Assembly: GCA_030390025.1 (NCBI GenBank)
Contig: JASTWF010000069.1
Span: 930,001 to 994,000 of the forward strand
DNA from: Squalus acanthias
Lineage: Eukaryota
Length of the DNA stretch: 64,000 nucleotides
Direction: 5' to 3'
The position numbers were made by a program, and so were the translations under genes. The notes below the pieces were generated by a model that was not told the origin of the DNA, ran no database searches, and was given only the letters and a program-made list of their open reading frames with translations. Shown piece by piece: positions 19,301-64,000 of the stretch. Numbering within the stretch: position 1 is the stretch's first letter; each line of letters starts with the position of its first letter.

Positions 19301-22300
19301 GTCCCGCAAGAGAAAGTACTTTGACCCGGATAATACCAGAACTGAGAGGTTACAACGATCAGGAAAGATTGAACAGGCTGGGGCTCTTTTCTCTAGAAAA
19401 GAGAAGGCTGAGGGGTGACCTGATAGAGGTCTTTAAAATTATGAAGGGGTTCGATAGGGTAGACGGAGAGAAGGTATTTCCACTTGTGGGGGAGACCAGA
19501 ACTAGGGGCCATCAATATAAGATAGTCAGTGATAAATCCAATAGGGAATTCAGGAGAAACTTCTTTTCCCAGAGAGTGGTGAGAATGTGGAACTCGCTAC
19601 CACAGGGAGTGGTTGAGGCGAAGAGCAGAGATGCATTTAAGGGGAAGCTGAATAAACACATGAGGGAGAAAGGAATAGAAGGATATGTTGATGGGGTGAG
19701 ATGAAGAGGAGTGGGAGGAGACTGGTGTGGAGCATAAACACCGGGATGGACCAGTTGTGGTGAATGGCCTCTTTCTGTGCGGCAGACTTGATGTAACTTT
19801 GTGTGAATCTGCTAAGAAGAAATTGTTTCCTATTTCCAGGATTGGCGGAGTGTCTGTCACTGAGCTTAATACACTTTCTCTCCGAGACCCTTGAATTGAC
19901 TATACTGGGTGGGGGTGAAGGACCTGGTCACAGCCCCAGGAACACTGGCTCTCCACTCACTCAGAGATCTCTGCCAATGTTAAATTAAATCCTCTCCACG
20001 GCAGGACAGAACCAATTTGCAATTATCCCTCAACCAAAACATAAAAGAAAGACTTGCATTCCCACAGCTCATTTCATGACCTCAGGACGACCCAAAGTGC
20101 TTGACAGCCAATTAAATACTTCTAAAGTGTTAAACCAGATGATCTGGTCATTATCACATTGCTGTTTGTGGGAGCTTGCTGTGCGCAAACTGGCTGCCAC
20201 GTTTCCTACATTACAACAGTGACTACACTTCAAAAAAAGAACTTAATTGGCTGTGAAGCGCTTTGGAACCTCCTGAGGTGGTGAAAGGTGCTGGAGAAAT
20301 GTGAATCTGTCTTTTGTCTGTATGTAAGACTTTTAAACACGATTAGAGAGATATATGGGAGTCGATAACCTGATAACAATGATGGACACAGTCAAGACAT
20401 TCAATCATTGATAATAAAGTGAGTATTAGAGGTTGCTTTAGGACTGAACTGGAAGGTATCGCCAGGTTATTGATAATCAGACACTGTGTTATAATAAGCT
20501 GTGTTTTGTGTTAATGTGTAACCGCCACAGTTTCTGTTATTTCCCACTGACTGTTGAGCGTGAATTGTGGAGTAATTATAACCCAGCACTTACCAGAAAC
20601 ATGAAGCTGTGTTACAGGGTGGTAGTTAAACCGAACACTGTTGTCAAAATCTATTCTGAAATAATAAGTTCCTGCGTCTCGCTGTGTGATGTTGTTTATA
20701 ATCAGGGAACAGTCACCATCTCTCAGGTCTCCAGACAGCCGGGTCCGATGGTGAAACTGTGGCGACTCACGATTGTGATCCTTGGAGTGAAAGGCTATAG
20801 GCGATGATCTCCATTTCTCATAATTATACCAGATTCCAACTCGCGATTGGTTTGCCAGATGCGATGGATAAGTGTAATGACATGGAATCTGTGCACACAA
20901 ACCTTCCTGTGCTGTCACCACTCGTGGAGTCTTGCCTTTCCACACCTCTGACAATACAGCTGGGGAGAGAAATATCAATATTTAGCACTGGATGGCTTGT
21001 CGCTCCACTGGACTCGATATCCACCCCCTCCGTCACTGGCGCACAGTGTCTGCAGTGTGGACCATCTACAGGACACACAAGGAACTCACCAAGGTTACAT
21101 TGACAGCACCGCCCTCCCCTGCGACCTCTACCACCCAGAAGGACAAGAGCTACTGAGACAACACAATCCAAGAATGAATATCAAACACTGCGCACCGTGT
21201 TCTGTGATTGGGGAGCATTATAGTGAACCCACATGTCGGACAGACTCATAGTCACCTTGCCCGTGGACATCGCACCCGCCTGTCCTCATGCCTTTTCCTC
21301 AGCATACAATGTTTCTGTATGTGAAGACAATTCTTGACCCAACAGATGGCTCCATCAACCCAACGGATGGAAGGGAATCCTCGGCACGGGAGTGGACAAG
21401 TTCATTCTATATTGGCTCACAGACCTCAGGACCCTGTTCAGTGAAGTAGGTCTTCCACCCAACACAATGCCTAAATGACGCACCCATTGAGGAATATTCT
21501 GTGCTGACTTACAAGGCAGGAACAGTGGATTAGGATCCATCAGAACTCATGCCACTATCTCCATCCTGAATCACTAGAGTCATAGAGTCACACGGCACAG
21601 AAGGAGGCCATTCGGCCCATCGAGTCCGTGCCGGCTCTCTGTAGAGCAATCCAGTCAGTCCCATTCCCCCGCTCTATCCCCGTAGCCCTGCAAGTTTATT
21701 TCCCTCAAGTGCCTATCCAGTCTCCCCTTGAAAACATTGAAGGCTGGATTTTGTCAGTGTGGGGCGGTGTCAGGTGGAAATCGTGTCGGGACCCCGACTC
21801 CTAAGTGAAGTGCTGAAATAGTGGGATTTTCCCCTAATTGTGCAATTGATTTCCTGGGTGTGGGAACCCCTGGCCCAATGAGTCTTTTCAGACAGAAAGT
21901 CGCCTTCGATGACATCATCAATGCTGCTGGATTTAAGACCTGCAAGCAGCCTTGCTTCTTCTGGAGACTGGAAACGCTTTGGAAATTGTAGGAAGGAATA
22001 ATTTACCGACCATGTGCACCAGCAAGCAAAAGTGTGCACCTCGGTTTGATGAGCCCTCCCTCCAAGCTCTGGTGCATGGAGCCAGATGTAATAAGGAGGT
22101 GCTGTTCCCTTCCTCGGGGAGAAAAAAGCCACCCCAGCAGACAAAAGCTGTGTGGCTGCAAGTGGCCCAGGAGGTCAACTCCATTTCGCTGAGCCGCAGA
22201 ACCTGGCTGCAGTGCAGGAAGAGGTTTCATGACCTTCTCCACACAGGAAAAGTGAATATGACATTCCCATCACACTCAATCTGATCCCCATCGCCTCTCC

Positions 22301-25300
22301 TCACCAGCACTCTGCTTTGCCAACCTCTTCCTCCACATCCCACTTGACACTTACATTCCTGCACCCTTACCCATTCTCTCTCTCTCTCGAAGGTCACATT
22401 CACTTAACTATTCAACTATGCAGCCCTCACACTCCCTATCACTGTGATGCCATGACAACAACAACTTTTATCACACAGGGAGGGTCCTTTGTATCCTTCT
22501 AAGCATCTATGCTCTGGATTCTCTACACTCACTCCTTCATTCTCACTCAAACTCCACTTGTGTCCCTCATTGCAGGAAAAGAGAGCCCACAATAAGAGGG
22601 AAAGAGCCATGACAGGAGGAGGGCCACCCTCAGTAGCCCAGCTCACTGCCTGGGAGGAGGCGGCCCTGGAAATCGCCAGGATCGAGGAGGATTCCCAAGT
22701 GGGGGACGGACAGATGGGCGCATCACAGCAAGCTGGTGACAGAATAGTTTAGCATCTCTCTCATTGACATTGCATGGGTCACTGATAATGAATCTGATGC
22801 TCTAACAGATTGACTTATGATCATCTGCACTATTCAATGTTCATGTAACCTTGACCTCACATCTCTAACTCTTTCCTTTACTCCCCCATAGGACCATTGA
22901 AAGCCCCTGTCCCCACTGTCCAGGAGGAAGAGCCTGAGCTTCCAGACTCCTCAGAGGAAGCTGCAACCTCTGAGGGCGCAGCCTCAGCAGAATTCAGCGC
23001 ACCCAGCACCAGCGCAGACACTCACACCTCGGTGGGACCTTCGCGAGATAGAGTAGTGTTGGCACCTGGTTTATCACAGCTCACAAGTGAGCTTCAGCAG
23101 ATGGTGGAGACAGGGACAGCAGTGGAGAGGCCTCGTCGGAGGGCGCAGGACTCTGCCAGCTTGGCTCAGCTGCATGTCGACCCTGTGCCTCCGGGTCCAT
23201 CCAGAAGGAGAGCGGTGCTGGAACTCCAGGAACAGGTGCAGGAGTCTCTGGCAGGTTTTGTCTCCAGGGTTGCTGCGAGTGTCGAGCAAATGGAGAAGTC
23301 CATCGCGAACATGAGCAGAGCCTTTGTGGAGGCATTGGCGCATGAACGCATCACCACGGAAAGGATGGCAACCTCTGTGGAAAGGATGGCTACGGTAGAG
23401 GAGAGGATGGCTAAGGCCATGGAGGAGCTAAGTCGCCAGAGTGTAGAAAACATGTTCATTGTTCAGAATAGACTGGCATCTCTTGAGGCGCGATGGTCAG
23501 CTACTGAGCATAGAAACCAGACCTTCATGGAAGTCCTCTGGAGTAGGACTTGCAGTGCAGAAACGGGTCCTCATGGCCCCCCTGAAGTGCAGCAAGGTGC
23601 TGTCAAGCCACTTGCTAGCTCTGAAGTGGGGCTGACCCATGAGAGGGATATTGGTGGCAGACAACAAGGAAGTGGGGGCTCCTCTCCAAGCGCTCAAACG
23701 ACCATGCCACTGCAAAGCCCTCGGTCAGAGCCCCACCAGAGTCCTCATCCCAACTGAGATGGGCATCTCAGCCCCTGCACAGCCGCAGGAGCAGCAGACT
23801 GTTGCCGAGCCCTCACAGGTTCGCAACCCCAGAGGACGGCCGCCAAAGGTGTCGAGACAGGAGCAGCAAGAAAGTGAGCAAGGGGCGTCCACATCTGCTG
23901 TAGCCACAGGGGAAGCACCACGTAGGAGCACGCGTAAGAGGAAGATAATGCACAAGTAGTCACATGGGTAGTCACTTGGGTGTTATGTTGTGTTTATTTT
24001 TGAAATGCCACCAGTTGCTTGATGTGATAAAAAATTCTGATGGCAAACTGTTGAAGTTGTGGCCTGTGTCATTTTGCAAATGGAACTTCTACATTGAGGG
24101 CTTAGAGCGACTTGCAATCGTCAGTATGGTGGTCAGAGTTATAGGAATCCGTAGGTTCTTGTCCATTGTCGATGCTCTGGTAAGAACGTGCGAGGCAAAG
24201 GTGTTTGATTGTACAGGCTAAGCAAATGTGACCAACATGAGTGTGTCCCTTGCATCCCGGGCAGCAATATGGTCGTGCTCTGGTGACTTCTGGCCTGTGC
24301 ATCTTCAGGTGGGTGAGCAGCAGCTTGGCGCTCCTGTTGATGCTCCTGCTGTTGGTGCTGCTGTTGTTCATGGTTCTGCTGCTGCCGCGGCTGGTCTTCA
24401 TCCGAATCTGATGTCCAGGAGGAAAGGAAATATATGGTTCCCATGCTTCTGGTATATGCCTCAGTTGAGGAAGCGCTTAGTCAAGGTGGGGAGAGGGGTT
24501 TCCCAGGAGGTCACACTGGAGATGGGTGTCAGGCTCCAAACTTCCACAACACTGAGTAGGCCTGCTAAAAGTTCCCCCAGACCTGAAACAACAAAGTTCT
24601 ACCACCTGCAAATGATCATCGGTGAAAACTCCTTCGTAATGGTGGAGCTGCAGCTGTTGGTAAGCAGTCCACTTGTGAGGCCGCCAGCATTACCTGGCGT
24701 GTTCCAGAGGAGGCGTGAGGGATGGGGGGAATGACTAAAAATCGGAAAGGCCTCTCAAAATGGGATTATAGAGGCTATTAAGTGGTTGTTAAGGGCCTTA
24801 AGGGCCTATCCCGCCTCTTGGAGGCGGATGGAAAGGGGGTCAGAAAACACGCATTTGGGAAAAATGCTCGGAGGTGGGATGGAGGCGGGATTGGGCCTGC
24901 CCGCCAGTTTTTCCTCACATCCCCCCTGTATCTCTTGCCCAAAATCTGTGTCCCCTAGTCCTTGTACCATCAACTAGTGGGAACAGCCTTTCCCCGTCTA
25001 GCCTATCCAAACCCGTCATAATCTTGTACAACTCTATCAAATCACCCCTCAACCTCCTTTGCTCTAATGGAAACAAATCCAGCTTCTCCAACCTGTCCTT
25101 GCAGCTAAGATCCCCCATCCCCGGAACCATTCTGGTAAATCTCCTCTGCACCCTCTCAAGGGCCTTCACATCCTTCCTAAAGTGTGGTGACCAGAACTGG
25201 ACGCAATACTCCAGTTGTGGCCTAACCAGCGCTTTCTAAAGGTTCAGCATAACTTCTCAACTTTTGTACTCAATACCTCTATTTATGAAGCCCAAGATCC

Positions 25301-27083
25301 CATATGCTTTGCTAACCACTTTCTCAATATGTCCCGCCACCTTCAGGGACCTATGCACATTAACTCCCAGGTCCCTCTTTCACTGCACACTCTTTAAAAC
25401 TGTGCCATTAAGTGTATATTGCCTCTCCCTGTTCCTTCTGCCAAAATGCATCACCTCACACTTCTCTGTATTAAATTCCATCTGCCACTTGTCTGCCCAT
25501 TCTGCTAGCCTTTCTATGTCCTGTTGCAGTCGATTGGTATCATCCTCACTGTTTGCCACACCCCCAAGTTTGGTGTTGTCGGCAAATTTAGAAATTCTAC
25601 TCTGTATTCCAATATCCAGGACATTTATATATATCAAAAAAAGCAGTGGCCCCAGCACTGACCCTTGGGGAACACCACTGTCTACCATCCTCCAGTCTGA
25701 AAAACAGCCATTTACCACAACTCGCTGTTTTCTGTCCTTAAGCCAATTCCTTATCCAAGCTGCCACTGACCCACCTATTCCATGAGCCTCAATTTTGTTA
25801 ACCAGCCTTCTATGTGGTACTTTGTCAAACGCCTTCCCAAAATCCATGTAGACAACATCCATTTCATTCCCTTCATCAATCCTCCCTGTTACTTCAACAA
25901 AAAAATCAATTAGATTAGTCAAACACGATCTGCCTTTTACAAATCTGTGTTGGCTCTCCTTAATTAGCTTAAACCTCACCAAGTGTCCGATAATTTTTTC
26001 CTTGATTATTGTTTCTAAAATTTTACCCAACACTGATGTTAAACTGAATGGACTGTAGTTACTAGGATTGTCCTTACACCCTTTCTTGAACAATGGTTTC
26101 ACATTTGCCACTTTCCAATCTTCAGGCACCTCCCCCGCATCTAGGGAAGATTGGAAAATTATGGCAAGCCCTTCCGCTCTCTCCTCCCCCAATTCCCTTA
26201 GGAAGCCTAAACCTCTTGTTTGCTCTTCAGCCTCCCGATTGTCTAAGCTGGTGAATTTTGGATCCTCATTGTCTAAGGAATCACTTTGGATCCTCATTGT
26301 CTAAGGAATCACTTTGGATTCATGTCTAAGGAATCACTTTGGATCCTCATTGTCTAAGGACTATCTTTGGATCCTCATTGTCTAAGGAATCACTTTGGAT
26401 TCTCATTGTCTATGAAATATAACTGCACAGCAGATCAGAGGCAAACAGAGAAACTATATATATGACACCTTTATACACTTCCTGTCTTGTTTGCTTGTTA
26501 TCTTAACCACATCTTGCACCCTTACCATGGTATGAGGACTGAACTGCCTGTCTATTCTAAGCGCTGCTGTGTTGTTGTCATGGTGACCTGTAACTAAAAT
26601 TTGGATCTCTGCGCTCCTTCAATTCTGGCCTCTTGTCCATCCCCGAGTTTTAGGGAGGGAATTCCAGAGCTTAGGGTCGAGACGGCTGAAGGCACGGCCG
26701 CCATTGGTGGAGCGATGGAAATCGGGGAGGCACAAGAGGCCAGAATGGGTGGAACGCAGAGATCCCGGAGGCTTGCAGGGCTGGAGGAGGTTACAGAGAT
26801 AGTGAGGCAGGGGGCGAGGCCATGGAGCGATTTGAAGACGAGGATGAGGATTTTAAATTTGGGGCGTTGCCGGACCGGGAGCCAATGTAGATCAGCGAGC
26901 GCAGGGTTGATCTGTGAACGGGACTTGGTGCGAGTTAGGACACTGGGTCACTGCTGAATTTGGTCCCCAATCATAGCTCAATAAGAATGATCTTTCACAA
27001 AGACTATTAACCATAAATATGTCCGAGCTGACGATGATATTACCTTGGAGAAGTGACAGGAGGAAGTAAGATTTCCTGATCAT
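13146..27083 (-). CDS. Siglec-family receptor copy A (CD33-related/MAG/CD22-like), 5 coding exons, 391 aa, V-C2-C2-TM, predicted activating
   Basis: exons 27083-27044, 20959-20594, 19232-18939, 18210-17929, 13339-13146; all GT-AG, all phase 1; total 1176 nt, open frame. Confidence 0.85.
13395..15670 (-). mobile_element. CR1 LINE with endonuclease and RT regions, frameshifted
   Basis: [20 protein letters not shown] (endonuclease), [21 protein letters not shown] (RT). Confidence 0.92.
15686..16040 (+). mobile_element. fragment of a second CR1-type LINE family
   Basis: [20 protein letters not shown] motif. Confidence 0.7.
16262..16680 (-). repeat. 98-bp tandem repeat (about 4.2 copies) made from a CR1 ORF2 segment
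   Basis: ttaacc/ttaatc at 16265, 16363, 16461, 16559, 16657; unit is antisense to the [17 protein letters not shown]-coding region. Confidence 0.85.
16681..17830 (+). mobile_element. 5'-truncated CR1 LINE with 3' microsatellite tail
   Basis: [18 protein letters not shown]; ends ctctatgactctatga. Confidence 0.92.
17929..18210 (-). CDS. Siglec A exon 4: Ig C2-set domain 3
   Basis: (Y)[29 protein letters not shown]...[12 protein letters not shown]; acceptor ttgtctttag, donor gtgagt; 282 nt. Confidence 0.9.
18330..18895 (+). mobile_element. Deu-domain (SacSINE1-like) SINE with internal 33-bp tandem expansion
   Basis: (gggagcgccgcactgtcggaggggcagtactga)n followed by gtcttt..atgagacattaaaccgagg..ctctcaggtggatgtaaaagatcccatg. 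Confidence 0.75.
18939..19232 (-). CDS. Siglec A exon 3: Ig C2-set domain 2
   Basis: [39 protein letters not shown]; acceptor tgttag, donor gtaagt; 294 nt. Confidence 0.92.
19320..19800 (+). mobile_element. CR1 3' fragment in intron 2 (mirrored at ~62990-63465)
   Basis: [34 protein letters not shown]. Confidence 0.85.
20045..20312. mobile_element. two oppositely oriented SINE 3' fragments (mirrored at ~62478-62745)
   Basis: tggctgtgaagcgctttgg..cctgagg..gaaag tail present in both orientations. Confidence 0.65.
20594..20959 (-). CDS. Siglec A exon 2: sialic-acid-binding V-set domain
   Basis: [40 protein letters not shown]: Siglec Cys pattern and F-strand Arg (20655-20657); 366 nt, AG/GT. 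Confidence 0.93.
21741..24906 (+). mobile_element. PIF/Harbinger DNA transposon derivative: Myb/SANT gene kept, transposase largely deleted, right end lost
   Basis: starts aggctggatttt; absent from the right arm; encodes a Myb/SANT-like protein; about 65 bp of flanking CR1 is missing at the right junction. Confidence 0.75.
22012..23757 (+). CDS. Myb/SANT-like (trihelix) DNA-binding protein of Harbinger type; exons 22012-22251, 22576-22735, 22892-23757
   Basis: APRFDE..L..LV..LFP...W..VA..VN.....[12 protein letters not shown] | [18 protein letters not shown]; GT-AG introns in compatible phases, 1266 nt; coiled-coil-like C-terminal part; probable frameshift before the ancestral end at 23959. 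Confidence 0.75.
26260..26412. repeat. 28-bp tandem repeat (ggatcctcattgtctaaggaatcacttt), mirrored at ~58606-58712
   Basis: direct repeats, about 5 copies on the left and 4 on the right. Confidence 0.85.
26600..26945 (-). mobile_element. L2 LINE 3' fragment (mirrored at ~57657-58000)
   Basis: encodes ..LADLHWLPV....[14 protein letters not shown], typical L2 C-terminus. Confidence 0.75.
27044..27083 (-). CDS. Siglec A exon 1: signal peptide [13 protein letters not shown](A)
   Basis: ATG, hydrophobic core, CAAG|gtaat phase-1 donor joining to (G)CT GTA TTG TCA; identical in both arms. Confidence 0.8.
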
Positions 27084-27904
27084 TGTCCACTCCCAGATAT
27101 TTCATCAACTTCTCACTCTCAAGGTCTGAAAGAGAAAGGAGTTAATGAGACCTCACCTCTTGCCCGACAGCTCTCGAGAGATCAAAACTGCTTTGAGACT
27201 ATGTCTTCACTAATTTTACTCACTGTGGGATGATAGGTGCTCTGCAGTGAGTTACAAGGCTTTAAGAAAGAAAAACAAAGGAATACTTGCATTTCTCCAG
27301 ACACTTTCACCACCTTAGGACATCCCAAATAGCCTCACAGCCAATGAAGTACTTCTTACAGTGTAGTCACTGTTGTAATGTAGAAAACGCGGCAGCCAAA
27401 TTGCACACAGCAAGATTCCACAGACGGCGATGGGATAAACGGTCAGACTGTCTGTACTTGATGTTACCGAAACTCACTGCTTGGGTCGAATGGCCTCTTC
27501 CTGTGCTGCACCCTCTGTGTATTCAATTAGAAAGGGTTGATGTGTCGCTGTGAGTTAAATCAGGAAGCGGGCAACAAGTGAGAAAACATCACTTTGTCCG
27601 GCCCTATAAGCAAACTGTTAACCCTTTGTGTCCTGACACTCTGAAGATATTTCTGCTGGAAGCTGGGCAGCCGTTGCCATGGAGTTTCCACCGGGGCTCA
27701 GTGGGTTTAACTCTCTTTCTCTCCCTCTCTCTCTCCCTCTCTCTTTCTCTCGCCTCTGAGTCAGAAGGTTGTGGGCTCAGAGACTTTTGAGTGATGCTGG
27801 TTGAGGGATAAATATTGGCCCCAGGACACCGGAGAGAACTCCTCCTGAGCTAAGGAAATACGTCATTTCTAGATTGCTAGATTATTGATGGTTAATGATG
27901 TCAA

Positions 27905-30600
27905 TGGTGTGGGGCTGAATGGGCCTCCACCTGTTCCTGTGTAACAGGCTCGAGGGGCTGAATGGGCCTCCTCCTGTTCCTGTGTAACAGGCTCGAGGGA
28001 CTGAATGGGCTTCCTCCTGTTCCTATGTAACTGGCTTGAGGGACTGACTGGTCCTCCTCCTGTTCCTGTGCAACAGGCTCGAGGGGCCTGAATGAGCCTC
28101 CTCCTGTTCCTGTGCAACAGGCTCGAGGGGGCTGAATGGGCCTCCTGCTGTTCCTGTGCAACAGGATCGAGGGGCTGAATGGGCCTCCTCCTGTTCCTGT
28201 GTAACAGGCTCGAGGGGCTGAATGGGCCTCCTCCTGTTCCTATGGAACAGGCTCGAGGGGCTGAATGAGACTCCTCCTGTTCCTGTGTAGCAGGCTCGAG
28301 GGTCAAATGGACCTCCTCCTGTTCCTGTGTAACAGGCTCGAGGGACTGAATGGGCCTCCTCCTGTTCCTGTGTAACAGGCTCGAGGGGCTGAATGGGCCT
28401 CCTCCTGTTCCTGTGTAACAATCTCGAGGGGCTGAATGGGCCTCCTCCTGTTCCTGTGTAACAATCTCGAGGGGCTGAATGTGCCTCCTCCTGTATCTGT
28501 GTAACAGTCTCGAGGGGCTGAATGTGCCTCCTCCTGTATCTGTGTATCAGGCTCGAGAGGCTGGGTGGGCCTCCTCCTGTTGCTGTGTAACAGGCTCGTG
28601 GGGCTGAATGGGCCTCCACCTGTTCCTGTGTAACAGGCTCGAGGAGGCTGATTGGGACTCCTCCTGTTCCTGTGTAACAGTCTCGAGGGGCTGAATGGGC
28701 CTCCTCCTGTTCCTGTGTAACAGGCTCGAGGGGCTGAATGGGCCTCCACCTGTTCCTGTGTAACAGGCTCGAGGAGGCTGATTGGGACTCCTCCTGTTCC
28801 TGTGTAACAGTCTCGAGGGGCTGAATGGGCCTCCTCCTGTTCCTGTGTAACCGGCTCGAGGGGATGAATGTGCCTCCACCTGTTCCTGTGTAACAGGCTC
28901 AAGGGGCTGAATGGAGCTCCTCCTGTTCCTGTGTAACAGTCTCGAGGAACTGAATTGGCCTCCTCTTGTTCCTGTGTAACAGGCTCGAAGGTCTGAATCT
29001 GCCTTCTCCTGTTTCTGTGTAACTGGCTCCTTGTTCTGAATCGGCCTCCTCCTGTTCTTGTGTAACAGGCTCGAGGTGCTGAATGGCCTCCTGTTGGTGT
29101 GTAACAGGCTCGAGGGGCTGAATGGGCCACCTCCAGTTCCTTTGTAACAGTCTCGATGGGCTGAATGGGCCTTCTCCTGTTCCTATGCAACAGCCTTGAG
29201 GGTCTGAATGTGCCTCCTCCTGTTCCTATGTAACTGGCTCGAGGGGCTAAATGGATCTCCTCCTGTTCCTGTGTAACAGGCTCGAGGGGCTGAATGGGCC
29301 TCCTCCTGTTCCTATGTAACTGGCTCGAGGGGCTGAATGGGCCTCCTCCTGTTCCTATGTAACAGCCTTGAGGGTCTGAATGTGCCTACTCCTGTTCTGT
29401 GTAACAGGCTTGAGGGGCTGAATGGGCCTCCTCCTGTTCCTGTGTAACAGGCTGAAGGTGCTGAAAGGGCCTCCTCCTGTACCTGTGTATCAGACTCGAG
29501 GGGCTGAATGGGCCTCCACATGTTCCTGCGTAGGAGGCTCAAGGGGCTGAATGTGCCTCCTCCTGTTCCTATGTAATAGTCTCGAGGGGGCTGAATGGGC
29601 CTCCTCCTGCCCCTTTGAAACAGGCTCAAGTGCCTGAATGTTCCTCCTCCTGCTCAACAGGCTCGAGGGGCTAAATGGGCCTCCTCCTGTTCCTGCGTAA
29701 CAGGCTCGAGGGGCTGAATGGGCCTCCTCCTGCTCCTGTGTAAGAGGCTCAAGGGGCTGAATGGGCCTCCTCCTGTTCCTAAATAACATGCTCGAAGGTC
29801 TGAATGGGCCTCCTCCTATTCCTGTGTAACAGGCTCGAGGGGCTGAATGGGCCTCCTCCTGTTCCTATGGTAACAGGCTCGAGGGGCTGAATGGCCTCCT
29901 CCTGTTCCTGTGTATCAGGCTCAGGGGGCTGATTGGGCCTCCTCCTGTAACTGTGTAACAGTCTCGAGGGGCTGAATGGGCCTCCTCCTGTTCCTATGGT
30001 AACAGGCTCGATGGGCTGAATGGCCTCCTCCTGTTCCTGTGTATCAGGCTCAGGGGGCTGATTGGGCCTCCTCCTGTAACTGTGTAACAGTCTCGAGGGG
30101 CTGACTGGGCCTCCTCCTGTTCTGTGTTGCAGGCTTGAGAGGCTGAGGGGCCTCTACCTGTTCCTCTGTAACAGGCTCAGTGGTCTGAATGGGCCTACTC
30201 CAGTTCCTATGGAACAGGCTCGAGGGGCTGAATGGGTCTCCTCCTGTTCCTGTGTAGCAGGCTCGAGCGGGCTGTATGGGACTCCTCCTGTACCTGTGTG
30301 AAAGTCTCGAGGGGCTGAATGGGACTCCTCCTGTTCCTGTGTAACAGGCTCGATGGGGCTGAATGGGCTCCTCCTGTTCCTGTGTAACAGGCTCGAGGGG
30401 CTGAATGGGCCTCCTCCTGTTCATGTGTCACAGGCTCGAGGGGGCTGAATGGGCCTCCTACTGCTCCTGTGTAACAGGCTCGAGGGGCTGAATGGGACTC
30501 CTCCTTTTCTTGTGTAACAGTCTCGAGGGACTGAATTGGCCTCCTCCTGTTCCTGTGTAACAGGCTCGAGGGGCTGAATGGACCTCCTCCTGTTCCTGTG
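27905..30600 (+). repeat. 43-bp minisatellite array
   Basis: direct tandem repeats. Confidence 0.95.
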
Positions 30601-51800: not shown

Positions 51801-54800
51801 GGACAGGAGGAGGCACATTCAGCCCCTCGAGCCTGTTACACAGGAACAGGAGGAGGCACATTCAGCCCCTCGAACATGTTACACGGGACAGGAGGAGGCA
51901 CATTCAGCCCGTCGAGCCTGTTACACAGGAACAGGAGGAGGCACATTCAGCCCCTCGAGCCTGTTACACAGGAAAAGGAGGAGGCCGATTCAGCCCCTCG
52001 AGCCTGTTACACAGGAACAGGAGGAGGCCATTCAGCCCCTCGAGCCTGTTACACAGGAACAGGAGGAGGCCCATTCAGCCCCTCGAGCCTGTTACACAGG
52101 AACAGGAGGAGGCACATTCAGCCCCTCGAGTCTGTTACACAGGAAAAGGAGAGGCCGATTCAGCCCCTCGAGCTGTTACACAGGAACAGGAGGAGGCCCA
52201 TTCAGCCCCTCGAGCCTGTTACACAGGAACAGGAGGAGGCACATTCAGCCCCTCGAGCCTGTTACACAGGAACAGGAGGAGGCCATTCAGCCCCTCGAGC
52301 CTGTTACACAGGAACAGGAGGAGGCCCATTCAGCCCCTCGAGCCTGTTACACAGGAACAGGAGGAGGCCCATTCAGCCCCTCGAGCCTGTTACACGGGAC
52401 AGGAGGAGGGACATTCAGCCCGTCGAGCCTGTTACACAGGAACAGGAGGAGGCCCATTCAGCCCCCTCGAGCCTGTTACACAGGAACAGGAGGAGGCCAT
52501 TCAGCCACTCGAGCCTGTTACACAGGAACAGGAGGAGGCCCATTCAGCCCCTCGAGCCTGTTACACAGGAACAGGAGGAGGCACATTCAGCCCCTCGAGC
52601 CTGTTACACAGGAACAGGAGGAGGCCCATTCAGCCCCTCGAGCCTGTTACACAGGAACAGGAGGAGGCCCATTCAGCCCCTCGAGCCTGTTACACAGGAA
52701 CAGGAGGAGGACCATTCAGCCCCTCGAGCCTGTTACACAGGAACAGGAGGAGGCCCATTCAGCCCCTCGAGCCTGTTACACAGGAACAGGAGGAGGCCCA
52801 TTCAGCCCCTCGAGCCTGTTACACAGGAACAGGAGGAGGCCCATTCAGCCCCTCGAGCCTGTTACACAGGAACAGGAGGAGGCACATTCAGCCCCTCGAG
52901 CCTGTTACACAGGAACAGGAGGAGGCACATTCAGCCCCTCGAGCCTGTTACACAGGAACAGGAGGAGGCCCATTCAGCCCCTCGAGCCTGTTACACAGGA
53001 ACAGGAGGAGGCCCATTCAGCCCCTCGAGCCTGTTACACAGGAACAGGAGGAGGCCCATTCAGCCCCTCGAGCCTGTTACACAGGAACAGGAGGAGGCCC
53101 ATTCAGCCCCTCGAGCCTGTTACACAGGAACAGGAGGAGGCCATTCAGCCCCTCGAGCCTGTTACACAGGAACAGGAGGAGGCCCATTCAGCCCCTCGAG
53201 CCTGTTACACAGGAACAGGAGGAGGCCCATTCAGCCCCTCGAGCCTGTTACACAGGAACAGGAGGAGGCCCATTCAGCCCTCGAGCCTGTTACACAGGAA
53301 CAGGAGGAGGCCCATTCAGCCCCTCGAGCCTGTTACACAGGAACAGGAGGAGTCCCATTCAGCCCCTCGAGCCTGTTACACAGGAACAGGAGGAGGCCCA
53401 TTCAGCCCCTCGAGCCTGTTACACAGGAACAGGAGGAGGTCCATTCAGCCCCTCGAGCCTGTTACACAGGAACAGGAGGAGGCCCATTCAGCCCCCTCGA
53501 GCCTGTTACACAGGAACAGGAGGAGGCCCATTCAGCCCCTCGAGACTGTTACACAGTAACAGGAGGAGTCACATTCAGCCGCTCGAGTCAGTTACCATAG
53601 GAAAATGAGGAGGCCGATACAGCCCCTCGATCCTGTTACACAGGGACAGGATGAGGCCATTCAGCCCCTCGAGCCTGTTACACAGGAACAGGAGGGGGCA
53701 CATTCAGCCCCTCGAACATGTTACACGGGACAGGAGGAGGTACATTCAGCCCGTCGAGTCTGTTACACAGGAACAGGTGGAGGCCCATTCAGCCAATCGA
53801 GCCTGTTACACAGGAACAGGAGGAGTACCATTCCGCCCCTCGAGCCTGTTACACAGGAACAGGAGGAGGCCATTCAGCCCCACGAGCCTGTTACACAGGA
53901 ACAAGGGGAGGCCCATTCAGCCCCTGGAGCCAGTTACACAAGAACAGGAGGCGGCCCATTCAGCCCCTCGAGCCTGTTACACAGGAACAGGAGGAGGCCG
54001 ATTCAGCCCCTCGAGCCTGTTACACAGGAGCAGGAGAAGGACCATTCAGCACCCTCGAGCCTGTAGCACAGGAACAGGAGAAGGCCCATTAAGCACCCTC
54101 GAGCCTGTTGCACAGGAGCAGGAGAAGGCCCATTCAGCATCCTCGAGCCTGTTACACAGAAACAAGGGGAGGCCCATTGAGCCCCTTGAGCCTGTTACAC
54201 AGGAACAGGAGGCGTCCCATTCAGCCCCTCGAGCCTGTTACACAGGAACAGGAGGAGGCCCATTCAGCCCCTCGAGCCTGTTGCACAGGAACAGGAGGAG
54301 GCCCATTCAGCCCCCTCGAGCCAGTTACACTGTAACAGGAGGAGGACATTCAGCCCCTCGAGCCTGTTACACAGGAACAGGAGGAGGCCCATTCAACCTC
54401 TCGAGCCTGTTACACAGGAACAGGAGGAGGCCCATTCAGCCCCTCGAGCCTGTTACACAGGAACAGGAGGAGGCCCATTCAGCCCCTCGTGCCTGTTACA
54501 CAGGAACAGGAGGAGGCCCATTTAGCCCCTCGAGCCTGCTCCACCATTCAATTCGATCATGGCTGATCTGTACGTCAACTCCAATTGCCCGCCTTTGCTC
54601 CACATCTCTTGACACCCTTAACCAACAAAAATCTAGCAATCTCAATTTCTAACGACTTCCTGCATCCACAGCCTTTTTGGGGAGAGAGTTCCAGATTTCC
54701 ACCACCCTTTGTGTGAAGACGTGCTTCCTGACATCAGCCCTGAGCAGCCAGATCTAATTTTAAGATTCTGCTCCCTTGTTCCGGAATCCGTTGTTAGAGA

Positions 54801-54974
54801 TTACGATTGAGAAATAGGAAGGAAAGAAATTTAACACAACATAATGACAGATCCTATATTCCATTTGAGATTATTTCTCCTTTAAAAAATAAACTAAAAT
54901 TGAAAGACTTCCCTTTATCAACTCAAGGCCAGACTGGGTTCTCTGTTCCTAACACAATCCTCAATCTATCCTGC

Positions 54975-56800
54975 GGCAGTTGTAGCTCAGTGTGTTCAGC
55001 ACTCTCTCTTTCTCACTCTCACATCTGAGTCACAAGGTTGTGGTTTCAAGGCCTCACTCCAGAGATTTGAACACATAATCCAGGCCGAGAATGATGGTGC
55101 CAGTACTGAGGGAGCGCCGCACTGTCGGAGGGGCAGTACTGAGGGAGCGCCGCAATGTCGGAGGGGCAGTACTGAGGGTGCACTGCACTGTCGGACGGGC
55201 AGTACTGAGGGTGCACTGCACTGTCGGAGGGGCAGTACTGAGGGAGCACCGCACTGTCGGAGGGGCAGTACTGAGGGTGCACTGCACTGTTGGAGGGTCA
55301 GTACTGAGGGAGTGCCGCACTGTCGGAGGGGCAGTACTGGGGGAGTGCTGCATTGTCGGAGGGGCAGTACTGAGGGAGCGCCGCACTGTCGGAGGGGCAG
55401 TACTGTGGGAGCGCCGCACTTTGGGAGGGGCAGTACTGAGGGAGCGCCGCACTGTCGGAGGGGCAGTACTGAGGGTGCACTGCACTGTCGGAGGGGCAGT
55501 ACTGAGGGAGCGCCACACTGTCGGAGGGGCAGTACTGAGGGTGCACTGCACTGTCGGAGGGTCAGTACTGAGGGAGTGCCGCACTGTCGGAGGGGCAGTA
55601 CTGGGGGAGTGCTGCACTGTCGGAGGGGCAGTACTGAGGGAGCGCAGCACTGTCGGAGGGGCAGTACTGGGGGAGCCCCTCACTGTCGGAAGGGCAGTAC
55701 TGAGGGAGCACTGCACTCTCGGAGGGTCAGTACTTGGGGAGCGCCGCAGTATCAGAGGGGCAGTACTGAGGGAGAGCTGCACTGTCGGAGGGGCAGTACT
55801 GAGGGAGCGCCGCACTGTCGGAGTGGCAATACTGAGGGAGCGCCGCACTGTCGGAGGGGCAGTACTGAGGGAGCGCCGCACTGTCACATGGTCAGTACTG
55901 AGGGAACGCCGCACTGTCGGAGGGGCAGCACTGAGGGAGCACCGCACTGTCGGAGGGGCAGTACTGAGGGAGCGCCGGACTGTCGGAGGGGCAGTACTGA
56001 GGGAGCGCCGCACTGTCAGAGGGGCAGTACTGAGGGAGCGCCGCACTGTCGGAGGGTCAGTACTGTGGGAGCGCCGCACTTTGGGAGGGGCAGTACTGAG
56101 GGAGCGCCGCACTGTCAGAGGGGCAGTACTGGGGGAGCGCCGCACTGTCGGAAGGTCAGTACTGAGGGAGCGCCGCACTGTCAGAGGGGCAGTACTGGGG
56201 GAACGGCACACTGTCGGAGGGGCAGTACTGAGGGAGAGCTGCACTGTCGGAGGGGCAGTACTGAGGGTGCGCCGCACTGTCGGAGTGGCAATACTGAGGG
56301 AGCGCCGCACTGTCGGAGGGGCAGTACTGAGGGAGCGCCGCACTGTCACAGGGTCAGTACTGAGGGAGCGCCGCACTGTCGGAGGGGCAGTACTGAGGGA
56401 GCACCGCACTGTCGGAGGGGCAGTACTGAGGGAGCGCCGCACTGTCAGAGGGGCGGTACTGAGGGAGCGCCGGACTGTCGGAGGGGCAGTGCTGAGGGAG
56501 TGCCGGACTGTCGGAGGGGCGGTACTGAGGGAGCGCCGGACTGTCGGAGGGTCAGTACTGAGGGAGTGCCGGACTGTCGGAGGGGCGGTACTGAGGGAGC
56601 GCCGGACTGTCGGAGGGTCAGTACTGAGGGAGTGCCGCACTGTCGGAGGTGCCGTCTTTCAGATGAGATGTTAAACCGATGCCCTGTCTGCTCTCTCAGG
56701 TGGACGTAAAAGATCCCAGGGCCAATATTTTGAAGAAGAGCAGGAAGAGTTCTTCCCGGTGTCCTGGGGCCAATATTTATCCCTCAACCAGCATTACTCA
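54975..56800 (+). mobile_element. Deu-domain SINE with ~1.5 kb internal 33-bp expansion (55102-56648)
   Basis: tRNA-like head (gctcagtg..ctgagtca..ggttcaag), 33-mer array, then ggtgccgtctttcagatgagatgttaaaccga..caggtggacgtaaaagatccc. Confidence 0.8.
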
Positions 56801-58784
56801 AAAGTCTCTGAGCCCACAACCTTCTGACTCAGAGGAGAGGGAGAGGGAGAGAGAGAGAGAGAGAGAGGGAGATGAAGAGAAAGAGAAAGAGCTAAACCCA
56901 CTGAGCTCCGGTGGAAACACCATGGCAACGGCTGCCCAGCTTCGAGCAGAAATATCTTCAGAGTGTCAGGACACAAAGGGTTAACAGTTTGCTTATAAGG
57001 TCGGACAAAGTGATGTTATCTCACTTGTTGCCCGCTTCCTGATTTGACTCACTGCGACACATCAACATTTAAAGTTGAATACACAGAGGGTGCAGCACAG
57101 GAAGAGGCCATTCGACCCAAGCAGTGAGTGTCGGTAACATCAAGAACAGACTGTCTGACCGTTTATCCCATCGCCGTCTGTGGGATCTTGCTGTGTGCAA
57201 TTTGGCTGCCGCGTTTCCTACATTACAACAGTGACTACACTGTCAGAAGTACTTCATTGGCTGTGAAGCGCTTTGGGACGTCCTGAGGTGGTGAAAGGTG
57301 CTGGAGAAATGCAAGTATTCTTTGTTTTTCTTTCTTAAAGCCTTGTAACTCACTGCAGAGCACCTATCATCCCACAGTGAGTCAAATTAGTCCGTGAAGA
57401 CATTGTCTCAAAGCAGTTTTGATCTCTCGAGAGCTGTCGGGCAAGAGGTGAGGTCTCATTAACTCCTTTCTCTTTCAGACCTTGAGAGTGAGAAGTTGAT
57501 GAAATATCTGGGAGCGGACAATGATCAGGAAATCTTACTTCCTCCTGTCACTTCTCCAAGGTAATATCATCGTCAGCTCGGACATATTTATGGTTAATAG
57601 TCTTTGTGAAAGATCATTCTTATTGAGCTATGATTGGGGCCAAATTCAGCAGTGACCCAGTGTCCTAACTCGCACCAAGTCCCGTTCACTCCTCAACCCT
57701 GCGCTCGCTGATCTACATTGGCTCCCGGTCCGGCAACGCCCCAAATTTAAAATCCTCATCCTCGTCTTCAAATCGCTCCATGGCCTCGCCCCCTGCCTCA
57801 CTATCTCTGTAACCTCCTCCAGCCCTGCAAGCCTCCGGGATCTCTGCGTTCCACCCATTCTGGCCTCTTGTGCCTCCCCGATTTCCATCGCTCCACCAAT
57901 GGCGGCCGTGCCTTCAGCCGTCTAGACCCTAAGCTCTGGAATTCCCTCCCTAAAACTCGGGGATGGACAAGAGGTCAGAATTGGAGGAGCGCAGAGATCC
58001 AAATTTTAGTTACAATTCGCCATGACGACAACACAGCAGCGCTTAGAATAGACAGGCAGTTCAGTCCTCACAATTACTGCCCATTCTCAGGATGATAGCA
58101 ACCATGGTAAGGGTGCACGATGTGGTTAAGATAACAAGCAAACAAGACAGGAAGTGTATAAAGGTGTCATATATACAGTTTCTCTGTTTGCCTCTGATCT
58201 GCTGTGCAGTTACATTGCATAGAATCATAGAATGATACAGCACAGAAGGAGGCCATTCTGCCCATCGTGCCTGTGCCGGCTCTTTGAAAGAGCTATCCAA
58301 TTAATCCCACTCCCCCGCTCTTCCCCCACAGCCCTGCTGAAATCATGAATATTTCAGACGAACACGGAACAAGAGGTATTTGCCACCGACGTTTAGTTTG
58401 AAGCCCAGTTCAGTTTTAACAAACACGCAGCGAGACCGCCTGTAAACGCCCCTGCACCTCCGACACATTCAGAGCTCAGGCAAGAGGAGATTCGCTCCTG
58501 TGCTTCAAAGAGTCTGCTGGAGTAGGAACAGTGCTGATCTTGGGGACAAGTCAGTCTACAATGCTGTATCGGAATCACCCTACAGCAATATTGTTGGACC
58601 TAAAATAATCCCTTAGAAAATGAGGATCCAAAGTGATTCCTTAGACAATGAGAATCCAAAGAGATTCCTCAGACAATGAAAATCCAAAGAAATTCCTTAG
58701 ACAATGAGGATCCGAAATTCGCCAAGTAGACTGAATCAGCTTAGACAATCAAGAGGGCTGAAGAGCAAACAAGAAGGTCAGGCT

Positions 58785-60309
58785 TGCTAAGGGAATTGGG
58801 GGAGGAGAGAGCGGAAGGGCTTGCCATAATTTTTCAATCTTCCCTAGATGCAGGGCAGGTGCCTGAGGATTGGAAAATGTCAAATGTGAAACCATTGTTA
58901 AAGACAGGGTGTACGGCCAATTCTACTAACTACAGGCCGGTCAGTATAACATCGTTGGTGGGTGTAGTTTTAGAAACAATAATCAAGGAAAAAATTATCG
59001 GTCACTTGGAGATGTTTAAGCTAATTAAGGAGAGCCAACACGGATTTGTAAAAGGCAGATCGTGTTTGACTAATGTAACTGAATTTTTTGCTGAAGTAAC
59101 AAGGAGGATTGATGAAGGGAATGCAATGGATGTTGTCTGCATGGATATTCGGAAGGCGTTTGACAAAGTACCACATAGAAGGCTGGTTAACAAAATTGAG
59201 GCTCATGGAATAGGTGGGTCAGTGGCAGCTTGGATAAGGAATTGGCTTAAGGACAGAAAACAGCGAGATGTGGTAAATGGCTGTTTTTCAGACTGGAGGA
59301 TGGTAGACAGTGGTGTTCCCCAAGGGTCAGTGCTGGGGCCACTGCTTTTTCTTATATCTATAAATGACCTGGATATTGGAATATAGAGTAGAATTTCTAA
59401 ATTTGCCGACGACACCAAACTTGGGGGTGTGGCAAACAGTGATGACATCAATCGACTGAAACATGATATAGAAAGGCTAGCAGAATGGGCAGACAAGTGG
59501 CAGATGGAATTTAATACAGAGAAGTGTGAGGTGATGCATTTTGGTCAGAAGGAACAGGGAGAGGCAATTTCCACTTAATGGCAGTTTTAAACCAAGTGCA
59601 GGGACAGAGGGACCTGGGAGTTAATGTGCATAGGTCCCTGAAGGTGGCGGGACATTTTGAGAGCGGGGTTAGCAAAGCATATGGGATCTTGGGCTTCAAA
59701 AATAGAGGTATTGAGTACAAAAGTAGAGAAGTTATGCTGAAGCTTTATAAAGCACTGGTTAGGCCACAACTGGAGTATTGCATCCAGTTCTGGTCACCAC
59801 ACTTTAGGAAGGATGTGAAGGCCCTTGAGAGGGTGCAGAGGAGATTTACCAGAATGGTTCCGGGGATGGGGGATCTTAGCTACAAGGACAGGTTGGAGAA
59901 GCTGGATTTGTTTTCATTAGAGCAATGGAGGTTGAGGGGAGATTTGATTGTGGTGTGCAAGATTATGACGGGTTTGGATAGGCTAGACGGGGAAAGGCTG
60001 TTCCCACTAATTGATGGCACAAGGACTAGGGGACACAGATTTAAGGTTTTGGGCAAGAGATACAGCGGATTGTGAGGAAAATCTTTTTTATGCAGCGAGT
60101 GGTGAGGACATGGAACTCGCTGCCGACGGAAGTGGTGGAAGCGGAGACACTCAATGTTTTCAAGGGGAGACTGGATAGGCACTTGAGGGAAATAACCTTG
60201 CAGGGCTACGGGGATAGAGCGGGAGAATGGGACTGACTGGATTGCTCTACAGAGAGCTGGCACGGACTCAGTGGGCCGAATGGCCGCCTTCTGTGCCGTA
60301 TGACTCTAT
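58785..60309 (+). mobile_element. CR1 LINE in intron 1 of copy B
   Basis: RT ORFs 58784-59386 and 59578-60075; tail ends gactctat. Confidence 0.9.
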
Positions 60310-61205
60310 GGGGGAGAAATTCAGTATCACCCCATTTGGGGCGCAATTATTGGCCGGGCGCAAAGATTAGCGCCTGGCGCTAATTATCGCCACCGACTGC
60401 AAACTTGACTTTTATCGCCCCTGGAGGTGATTGGAGTGCTAAATCAGGCAGTTCACACCTGTCTTAAGGCGCAAAGGCCGAGAGGCGAGGCACTACTTCA
60501 GAGTGCTGGCGAAGCTCATGTGATGTCAGTCAGCAATGGAACACACACACAAAGGCACGGGCCTGTTCTTAAAGGGGATGGTTGATCTTGCTTTCCAGCC
60601 ACATCCTGCTCATTGCAGCCTTGAATCTCGGCCTGGAGAGACCTGCACATCAAATCTGCTGGAAAGAACAATGGAGAGTACCAGGCAAAGAGCTCAGAGT
60701 GCAGCCCCCACAGTCTCTTCTAAATCGATACAAGGAAGTTCAAATCAAAATGAACCTGCAAAGTGCTGCTCAGTACCCAAAACTCCTTCACACAGCGTTG
60801 AATCTCTCCAGAAGTCTCTCTCCCTCTCTCTCAGAATGCGTGGTTCAAAAATGGCACCAACAATAAAAGGCAGGAAGCGGTCGCCTTTAAATAGCGCTCA
60901 CCCAGTCCCTTCCTGACTGCAAACGGCTCCCCTCAACCTGTCGTTGCTAGCGGCAGGCTGTAAGGCAGGGGGCGCCACTCAATATCCGCTCCGGGGCGCT
61001 ACCGGGGCGCTGCGCACTCGACTGACGTCACGATCTGCCGGCGCAGGAGAACTACGTGGCGGTAGTGTTTAGCGCCGCCGCAAAATTTCTAGTTAATTTC
61101 GCGAGCGGCGCAAACATCGCCGCGCCTGGGCGCTCGATGATTGGCGCCCCATTAGCGCCCTCTTAAGGCGCTAATGGGAGACGCAACCAACTGAATTTTT
61201 CCCCC
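60310..61205. mobile_element. non-autonomous Harbinger-type element (896 bp)
   Basis: 16-bp TIRs gggggagaaattcagt / actgaatttttccccc (1 mismatch); 3-bp target duplication tat; empty site present in the left arm (~21578). Confidence 0.85.
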
Positions 61206-64000
61206 TATGACCCTAGTGATTCAGGATGGAGATAGTGGCTTTAGTTCTGACGGATCCTAATCCACTGTTCCTGCCTTGTAAGTCAGCACACAATATACCT
61301 CAATGGGTGTGTCATTTAGGCATTGTGTTGGGTGGAAGACTTGCTTCACTGAACAGGGTCCTGAGGTCTGTGAGCCAATATAGAATGAGCTTGTCCACTC
61401 CCGTGCCGAGGATTCCCTTCCATCCGTTGGGTTGATGGAGCCATCTGTTGGGTCAAGAATTGTCTTCACATACAGAAACATTGTATGCTGAGGAAAAGGC
61501 ATGAGGACAGGCGGGTGCGATGTCCACGGGCAAGGTGACTATGAGTCTGTCCGACATGTGGGTTCACTATAATGCTCCCCAATCACAGAACACGGTGCGC
61601 AGTGTTTGATATTCATTCTTGGATTGTGTTGTCTCAGTAGCTCTTGTCCTTCTGGGTGGTAGAGGTCGCAGGGGAGGGCGGTGCTGTCAACGTAACCTTG
61701 GTGAGTTCCTTGTGTGTCCTGTAGATGGTCCACACTGCAGACACTGTGCGCCAGTGACGGAGGGGGTGGATATCGAGTCCAGTGGAGCGACAAGCCATCC
61801 AGTGCTAAATATTGATATTTCTCTCCCCAGCTGTATTGTCAGAGGAGTGGAAAGGCGAGACTCCACGAGAGGTGACAGCACAGGAAGGTTTGTGTGCACA
61901 GATTCCATGTCATTACACTTATCCATCGCGTCTGGCAAACCAACCGCGAGTTGGAATCTGGATTAATATGTGGAACGGAGATCATCGCCTATAGCCTTTC
62001 ACTCCAAGGATCACAATCGTGAGTCGTCACAGTTTCGCCATCGGACCCGGCTGTCTGGAGACCTGAGAGATGGTGACTGTTCCCTGATTATAAACAACAT
62101 CACACAGCGAGACGCAGGACCTTATTATTTCAGAATAGAATTTGACAACAGTGATCTGTTTAACTACTACCCTGAACACAGCTTCATGTTTCTGGTAAGT
62201 GCTGGGTTATAATTACTCCACAATTCACGCTCAACAGTCAGTGGGAAATAACATAAACTGTGGCGGTTACACATTAACACAAAACACAGCTTATTATAAC
62301 ACAGCGTCTGATTATCAATAACCTGGCGATACCTTCCAGTTCAGTCCTAAAGCAACCTCTAATACTCACTTTATTATCAATGATTGAATGTCTTGACTGT
62401 GTCCATCATTGTTATCAGGTTATCGACTCCTATCTATCTCTCTAATTGTGTTTAAAAGTCTTACATACAGACAAAAGACAGTCTCACATTTCTCCAGCAC
62501 CTTTCACCACCTCAGGAGGTCCCAAAGCGCTTCACAGACAATGAAGTTCTTTTTTTGAAGTGTGGTCACTGTTGTAATGTAGGAAACGTGGCAGCCAGTT
62601 TGCGCACAGCAAGCTCCCACAAACAGCAATGTGATAATGACCAGAACATCTGGTTTAACACTTCAAAAGTACTTCATTGGCTGTGAAGCGCTTTGGGACG
62701 TCCTGAGGTCATGAAATGCGCTGTAGGAATGCAAGTCTTTCTTTTATGTTTTGGTTGAGTGATCATTGCAAATTGTTTCTGTCCTGCCGTGGAGAAGATT
62801 TAATTTAACATTGGCAGAGATCTCTGAGCGAGTGGAGAGCCAGTGTTCCTGGGGCTGTGACCAGGTCCTCCACCCCGAACCAGTATTGTCAATTCAAGTA
62901 TCTCAGAGAGAAAGTGCATTAAGCTCAGTGACAGACACTCCGCAAACCCTGGAAATAGGAAACAATGTTTTCTTATACATTCACACAAAGTTACATAGAG
63001 ACTACCGCTCAGAAAGAGGCCATTCAGCACAACTGGTCCATCCCGGTGTTTATGCTCCACACCAGCCTCCTCCCACCCCTCTTCATCTCACCCCATCAAC
63101 ATATCCTTCTATTCCTTTCTCCCTCATGTGTTTATTCAGCTTCCCCTTAAATGCATCTCTGCTCTTCGCCTCAACCACTCCCTGTGGTAGCGAGTTCCCC
63201 ATTCTCACCACTCTCTGGGGAAAGAAGTTTCTCCTGAATTCCCTATTGGATTTATCAGTGACTATCTTATATTGATGGCCCCTAGTTCTGGTCTCCCCCA
63301 CAAGTGGAAACATCTTCTCTACGTCTACCCTATCGAAACCCTTCATAATTTTAAAGACCTCTATCAGGTCACCCCTCAGCCTTCTCTTTTCTAGAGAAAA
63401 GAGCCCCAGCCTGTTCAATCTTTCCTGATCGTTGTAACCTCTCAGTTCTGGTATTATCCGTGTAAAAGTACTTTCTCTTGCGGGACTGTGATTTCTATTT
63501 GAACTGATGCCTCACGTTATATTTATCTAAAAGGATCCATTCTCTGTGTGTTAGATTTCACAGATAAACCCAGGATATTCCCTGCTGAAATGATTGCAGG
63601 AAAGCGTGTGAACGTAAGCTGCACCTTCAACACCACGTGCACTGGAACAGCACCTGTCTTAACCTGGGTCAATCCCACTGACGTACCCGGGTCAGTCTCA
63701 AACAGTGTAACTCAGCATGGCGTCACTCTGACATATACTTCTGTTCTGTCCCTGATTCCATCACTCAAACACCACGGACAAACTCTCACCTGCAGAGTCA
63801 GATATCCATCTGTTTCATCGGAACAGACCCTCGCACTCACTGTGCAATGTAAGTACGGATATCCTTAAATTTAATTACCCGTGCTAGTCTACATTGCGCA
63901 CGGCAAGATCCCACAAAGGGCAACATGGTGAGGCCTAGATCAGAAAATTTTTATTGATAAATATTGACAAGAACACTGGGGAGAACACTTCTTTAAATCG

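Follow-up and report, generated by a model that had tools for sequence, protein, structure and literature searches.

Introduction

In mammals, CD33-related Siglecs form paired receptors in which members bearing immunoreceptor tyrosine-based inhibitory motifs lie beside short-tailed members with a basic residue in the transmembrane (TM) segment, and gene conversion occurs between the two kinds (PMC13358205, PMC6288428). In the paired Siglecs of primates, conversion is found together with frequent null alleles (PMC13358205, PMC6288428). Another set of paired receptors, the ceacam proteins of Xenopus, shows almost no synonymous change after conversion and a build-up of non-synonymous change on the CC'C''FG face, and its partners are oppositely oriented (PMC5112662). 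The present analysis concerns a Siglec-like gene unit of Squalus acanthias. Two copies, A and B, lie in a window of 64,000 nucleotides (positions 930,001 to 994,000 of contig JASTWF010000069.1, here G000:C3542), and the tandem cluster around them was analysed over positions 490,001–1,134,000 of the same contig. Unless a contig is named, positions are those of the window.

Fish genomes have been said to lack CD33-related Siglecs, in a study of teleosts that makes no mention of sharks (PMC7226832), and the Siglec-family cluster has been placed at Tetrapoda (PMC13262535). A literature search, which did not extend to subscription papers, returned no paper on a shark Siglec cluster, its selection or its pairing; the evolutionary pattern set out below is known from mammals and was not found described for sharks.

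Selection on the V-set exons

Copies A and B are probably predicted activating members of a young tandem Siglec-like cluster in which gene conversion acts on the ectodomain cassettes and selection by pathogens acts on the V-set's CC'FG face. The evidence that carries this reading comes from the 14 V-set (V) exons of the cluster. When each distinct variant was counted once and without a tree, after masking the codons touched by frameshifts (12 in 3 exons), the V exons held 91 non-synonymous and 12 synonymous variants, a ratio of 2.4–2.9 relative to expectation (P from 1.3e-3 to 6e-5). The excess is confined to the V exons; domain 2 shows none (15 non-synonymous and 8 synonymous variants, ratio 0.7). 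It persists in the 11 exons with an open frame (78/11), without A and B (84/13), and among variants common to at least two copies (39/2, P=3e-4). Non-synonymous distance exceeds synonymous distance in 90 of the 91 pairs of V exons, and exceeds intron distance in 65 of 66 pairs. The excess is real and beyond chance, and the family gives it stronger support than does the A/B pair, on which the original prediction of diversifying selection at the ligand-binding face had been based.

Site models point the same way. These used a custom GY94-type implementation with F3x4 codon frequencies, branch lengths obtained by scaling those of a nucleotide tree made with IQ-TREE, and naive empirical Bayes (NEB) assignment only. 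For the V exons, M0 gave an omega of 3.8, and M2a placed 26% of codons in a class with omega 11.6, with a likelihood-ratio test (LRT) statistic of 107; the domain-2 exons gave an M0 omega of 0.77 and an LRT of 2.3. In 16 data sets simulated under neutrality with recombination, with a new tree every 10 codons, M0 ranged from 0.47 to 1.42, LRT from 4 to 63, and omega2 reached 6.5; the observed V values lie above all 16. Because recombination inflates such tests, neither the list of selected codons nor the value of 11.6 for omega is to be taken strictly.

Twenty codons had an NEB probability above 0.95: codon 33 in the B-C loop, 40 and 44 in strand C, six in 46–53 in the C-C' loop, 63–66, 97 in strand F, 105–106 in the F-G loop, and 109, 111, 113 and 115 in strand G. 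On the AlphaFold2 model, 15 of the 20 fall in strand C, the C-C' loop, strand F, the F-G loop or strand G, whereas strands B, E and D hold none; the selected codons would lie mostly on the CC'FG face around the conserved arginine. In Siglec-10, strands F and G together with the C-C' loop make up the binding site, in which Neu5Ac is contacted by R119, R127 and N129 (bioRxiv 10.1101/2025.06.10.658867). The distance to R101 and a local match of equal length, the sole basis of this comparison, would make R127 and N129 of Siglec-10 the counterparts of codons 109 and 111, and copy A has R at 109 and N at 111. Codons 97, 113 and 115 are farther down the same face, a position that would be as compatible with a protein adhesin as with a glycan.

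The comparison of A with B alone gives a modest signal. Their V exons lie at 20594..20959 on the minus strand (A; 366 nt, open, 121 codons, with W6, C21, C26, C83, R101 and F110) and at 61831..62194 on the plus strand (B; 364 nt, carrying two deletions of 1 nt each when set against the family frame), and both are bounded by AG...GT. Read in the family frame, they differ by 17 nt in 16 codons, none of the changes being synonymous, exactly as first counted; the probability that all 17 would be non-synonymous under neutrality is 0.002–0.011 for kappa of 1–5. The encoded domain-2 proteins are identical, as had also been noticed, with one silent difference in 294 nt between 18939..19232 (minus strand, A) and 63555..63848 (plus strand, B). 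Other parts of the original prediction need correction. The deletions in B mean that the exons do not differ by substitutions only, and the motif 'WIN-VER' given for B is a frameshift read through. The proposed acidic shift in B runs in the reverse direction: B has the usual acidic residues of the family, and it is A that is derived and more basic, with five private codons (E5V, E9K, P38S, E103D, D108V) to one in B. The cluster of changes at the N-terminal strand is likewise peculiar to A, and this strand is no hot spot in the family.

Along the unit, A and B differ at 2/450 positions upstream, 17/364 in the V exon, 2/200, 48/860 and 7/300 in successive parts of the intron and 1/294 in domain 2; across the paralogs, too, diversity is low for 200–450 nt around V and rises in mid-intron. 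The non-synonymous V rate between A and B is far above that of the near flanks (12/1244, P=6e-7), and the silent V rate is below that of the mid-intron (P=0.011). The absence of synonymous change between A and B is as expected from recent homogenisation of the V exon and its flanks. In addition, at 61700–61960, the intron just upstream of V is identical to B over 218–262 nt in sequencing runs labelled as other organisms.

Several observations weigh against the selective reading, and some favour an account by neutral drift and gene conversion, under which divergence proceeds in the exons as fast as in the intron, and the missing silent changes reflect chance or an artefact of tree models under recombination. 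The V exons of A and B are no more divergent than their whole intron (17/364 against 57/1360, Fisher P=0.66), and their non-synonymous rate is not above that of the mid-intron (48/860, P=0.65). V divergence no higher than that of flanking introns had been named beforehand as refuting the selective interpretation; it was found for the intron as a whole, but not for the near flanks. None of A's private changes was listed in the 8 runs compared over B, which did not cover A's own stretch. Recent variants carry little purifying signal, the ratio being 1.29 in the V framework and 0.7 in domain 2. Among older paralogs (18 V exons on contigs C17, C3, C3426 and C1048, of about 25 found), the excess was not replicated, the count ratio being 1.0 even in the same windows, where saturation may hide a signal. 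A site-model signal in these 18 exons (LRT 54, omega 3.5) was not accepted, since recombining neutral simulations yield false M1a/M2a statistics up to 63. Against neutral drift stand the tree-free count, with P no greater than 1e-3 under every filter, the M0 value of 3.8 compared with at most 1.42 in 16/16 simulations, and the distribution of V variants over codon positions (35/46/20). Neutral drift is largely refuted by these results and is considered very improbable.

A second alternative is local germ-line hypermutation, AID-like or through error-prone repair, which would generate substitutions and 1-nt indels in the loops without selection. The 14 V exons contain five 1-nt indels, every one of them on a column with a minor count of at least 5 (17/363 columns), tandem differences make up 54/211 in V and 36/404 in the intron, and silent variation is higher in windows 33–54, 60–66 and 96–115 (0.24) than in the framework (0.065). 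These windows were chosen after the variation had been seen, and the whole-exon tests are those relied on. The silent variation of the windows is, however, about that of the mid-intron (0.19), and isolated single changes still number 70 non-synonymous to 6 synonymous. Bias towards AID hot spots was rejected, WRC/GYW sites not being enriched (3/29 vs 37/137), as were CpG and tandem-change artefacts, the excess surviving the removal of CpG transitions (71/7) and of tandem changes (70/6). Hypermutation is therefore held to be very improbable.

It might also be supposed that the substitutions themselves are noise that entered the assembly when paralogs or haplotypes were collapsed. The contig is an unplaced one of 1.7 Mb, frameshifts fall on polymorphic columns, and apparent haplotig duplicates of other paralogs are present. 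Yet no indel was found in 35 C2 exons (10,011 bp), errors would not spare silent sites, the shared variants by themselves give 39/2, and variation at these loop positions is seen in other runs as well; such noise is an extremely improbable source of the substitutions.

Siglec identity of the family

The assignment to Siglecs in the original prediction was borne out by Pfam matches to V-set and Ig_CD22, by Siglec structural relatives and by a Siglec V-set fold. The closest solved relatives by sequence are Siglec-5, MAG, Siglec-8, CD33 and sialoadhesin. The AlphaFold2 model of the V-set domain has a predicted local distance difference test score (pLDDT) of 85 and TM-scores of 0.83–0.88 to the V-sets of sialoadhesin, Siglec-7, MAG and CD33, with sialoadhesin as the top Foldseek match. 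An N-terminal V-set is followed by C2-type domains, a TM segment and a tail.

In Siglecs, a B-E cysteine pair replaces the B-F pair of the V-set, and a spare cysteine links V to C2. In the shark family, C21, C26 and C83 are invariant in 44 sequences, strand F is without cysteine and domain 2 has three cysteines; this is the pattern that defines Siglecs, with the disulfide bonds themselves predicted. R101 aligns with the arginine of the YFFR/YYFR motif in Siglec-5, Siglec-8 and MAG, and lies within strand F (96–104) of the model. It is present in 12/14 V exons and replaced by lysine in 2/14. Among the aromatic residues of strands A and G, W6 is present in 14/14 V exons, and residue 110 is F or Y in 13/14. 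Sialic-acid binding dependent on Arg101 is putative.

Longer homologs comprise 112 proteins at 53–75% identity, all those named coming from sharks and rays, and the best 120 of 140 matches in a second homolog search included only shark or ray proteins and one without a name. A cluster-atlas search returned solely generic V-set, C2 and CD22-like clusters. A tree of 37 rows sets the family apart from the MAG and sialoadhesin rows, as a separate shark and ray clade (support 97/95). In the best such tree, which holds no Siglec-15 row and one long CD22 row, it joins tetrapod CD33-related-like proteins on one side of a branch with support 68/86.

Organisation of the cluster

The cluster span holds 14 V exons, 13 leader exons, 13 domain-2 exons, 22 further C2 exons, 6 TM exons with an arginine (Arg-TM) and 6 uncharged TM exons. 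Exon order and strand resolve these into ten genes, five with an Arg-TM exon and five with a tail bearing tyrosine motifs, plus one orphan V exon. Besides A and B, the Arg-TM genes comprise two others and a fifth that has three V-C2 cassettes. The tails of the other kind carry LLYASI/TEYAEI or NLYENC/SVYANV; one of these five genes has two cassettes, and one has 13 C2 repeats and a partly matched tail. The latter, at C3542:1065819-1109626, has 13 near-identical C2 exons forming a long stalk and a lysine at the position of the essential arginine; its V exon is frameshifted, and its first tail exon is interrupted by a gap of 1 nt. Arg-TM genes with short tails are predicted to be activating, A and B included, and genes with tyrosine motifs to be inhibitory, an exon arrangement that has the layout of paired receptors and had been overlooked in the original prediction. 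This assignment is made less secure by the gene models, which give exon order rather than full transcripts, and by the tail exons of g1068, which match only in part.

The ectodomains are equally distant within and between the two kinds, with intron distances of 0.044 between activating members, 0.042 between inhibitory members and 0.042 across kinds. The closest pair consists of one activating and one inhibitory member (intron 1.7%, domain 2 identical, V 21.5 non-synonymous vs 1.5 synonymous changes). Recombination is evident in site incompatibility, which falls at short range (permutation P=0.003). Together, these three observations fit a swapping of cassettes, whether through conversion or through unequal crossing over. 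A shared leader or a rearrangement was considered and dropped, 13 leader exons having been found. The same Arg-TM exon is present in 7/112 of the shark and ray proteins, and adaptor-type genes are present in the genome, with two matches to TM segments of the zeta/FcR-gamma type. Indels of 4 and 10 nt in the short tail give three C-termini among the six Arg-TM exons, none with a tyrosine motif.

In the window, the one gene unit occurs twice in inverted orientation, with A on the minus strand and B on the plus strand. A block at 18870..21585 (minus strand) is 96.5% identical to 61205–63916, and one around the leader exon at 24906..27709 (minus strand) is 93–94% identical to 56893–60084. Besides its V and domain-2 exons, the latter being the first C2-type Ig exon, copy A has on the minus strand a signal-peptide exon (27044..27083; coding part, 13 codons and 1 nt), a second C2-type Ig exon for domain 3 (17929..18210) and an exon for the TM segment and short tail (13146..13339), with an arginine in the membrane helix and no tyrosine motif. 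Its predicted open reading frame (ORF) of 391 aa is uninterrupted from the leader through V, two C2 domains and the arginine-bearing helix to the tail. Copy B has its signal-peptide exon (coding part) at 57521..57560 on the plus strand, and its leader, V, domain-2 and Arg-TM exons are as in A; its domain 3 is of a different type. The last two exons lie outside the window (domain 3 at C3542:995341-995616, Arg-TM from C3542:997545). The leader exon is spliced to V in contigs of family members from two RNA-like runs (X13 and X14), which are other samples of guessed RNA status and whose contigs end at exon borders. In one RNA-like contig of X14, V is joined to a downstream exon other than domain 2 (behind 62194), and this exon had no match among the cluster loci compared.

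Long satellite arrays of 43-bp units lie between the two genes (8319–9812, 27911–34245 and 41142–56649), in alternation with arrays of 33-bp units and with a repeated 560-bp spacer (92–98% alike). Elsewhere on C3542, a leader, one C2 exon and an Arg-TM exon at 887865-893842 (L045, L044), without V or domain 2 between them, form a V-less unit of activating type. An open V exon at 576461-576826 has no leader or C2 exon nearby, leader exons at 879493-879579 and 1057595-1057681 have no downstream V, and the V exons at 826403-826765 and 856978-857340 both lack 3 nt of the C-C' loop without loss of frame. Two V exons that are almost identical to each other and belong to a further Siglec-like type (35% identity to A, YYFR kept) are found at 1151057-1151350 and 1172973-1173266 (L089, L090), followed by a long CT-rich microsatellite that produces a spurious long ORF. 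On a different contig, G000:C30, more than 50 weaker V-set matches (26–34%) at about 6.0–8.0 Mb mark another large Ig-superfamily cluster.

Frameshifts in copy B

As assembled, the spliced copy B reaches a stop after 67 aa. Its first 1-nt deletion, at 61961..61967 (plus strand; following about 61966), affects codon 44–46 in strand C or the C-C' loop, its exact place being ambiguous, and the second, at 62173..62175 (plus strand; following about 62174), affects codon 115 in strand G. It is somewhat more probable that these frameshifts stem from errors of the consensus at heterozygous sites than that they are real lesions. Every one of the three V-exon deletions equals the common subsequence of two variants present among the paralogs, and in contigs bridging B's sites an extra base is seen in 3/8 runs at the first site and 6/8 at the second; none of these contigs was identified as B's own ortholog. 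Random lesions, moreover, should not strike only the most variable columns, as all five V indels do.

The contrary view, that both deletions are real and have recently made B a null copy of an activating receptor, has a substantial if lesser chance of being right. Null alleles of the activating receptors Siglec-14 and Siglec-16 occur commonly in humans (PMC6288428). Introns of the cluster also carry 1-nt indels (7 in 12 introns), and the bridging contigs may be other than B's own orthologs. That B was functional until recently, as suggested earlier, is one possible history: B may be functional now, or may be a true null. More generally, 'pseudogenes' in clusters of this kind may be assembly errors at selected sites.

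Discussion

Under the favoured reading of conversion combined with selection, gene conversion likely keeps the ectodomain cassettes alike, and selection imposed by pathogens likely brings amino-acid changes to fixation on the V-set's CC'FG face. Inhibitory members would use Arg101 to recognise sialylated self glycans and would signal by their tyrosine motifs. Microbes may exploit these members by sialic-acid mimicry or by protein adhesins directed at the same face, and Arg-TM members would counter such microbes by recruiting an adaptor of the FcR-gamma/DAP12 type. As conversion would reset silent sites, the new differences that persist would be mostly amino-acid changes. By analogy with mammalian paired Siglecs, the excess on this face likely stems from an arms race with pathogens. 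The cluster thereby offers 14 natural variants of one binding face, with some 20 named codons, for tests on glycans and microbes.

A shark cluster with a mammal-like layout and an omega well above 1 implies that this solution either arose far earlier or was invented a second time, independently. Tentatively, and with the balance slightly against it, the family can be viewed as a cartilaginous-fish branch of CD33-related Siglecs: a paired cluster under conversion and diversifying selection would have existed in the jawed-vertebrate ancestor and been lost in teleosts, and the shark array would be a modular, many-to-many set of shuffled V-C2 cassettes, its CC'FG face perhaps polymorphic enough within one animal to break the genome consensus. 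The shark and ray genes automatically annotated as 'Siglec-10/12/13, CD33-like, MAG-like' belong to this same family of 112 proteins. Like the conserved Siglecs of fish (Siglec-1, CD22, MAG and Siglec-15), its members have the same V-set fold and keep W6 and the G-strand aromatic residue; unlike them, the shark family is multi-copy, fast-evolving and a clade of its own.

The position of the shark arginine near the outer end of the membrane helix recalls partners of FcR-gamma rather than of DAP12. The signature of the shark family is that of the Xenopus ceacam paired receptors, which are CEACAMs and not Siglecs; conversion there is confined to the N exon in the account given (PMC5112662), whereas identity in the shark extends 200–450 nt into the flanks of V and over domain 2. 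With the mammalian CD33-related pairs, such as Siglec-5/-14 and Siglec-11/-16, the shark genes share a V-set with an F-strand arginine, C2 domains and a clustered arrangement, and a rapidly evolving tandem cluster with the V-set under positive selection, a trait of CD33-related Siglecs, is found here too. The change from arginine to lysine at position 101 (2/14) and the tandem V units recall Siglec-XII and the Siglecs that lack the arginine. Compared with the mammalian pairs, identity is only about 25–29%, the one-to-one pairing is replaced by a many-to-many cluster, and V-C2 cassettes are repeated two to three times per gene, with up to 13 C2 repeats.

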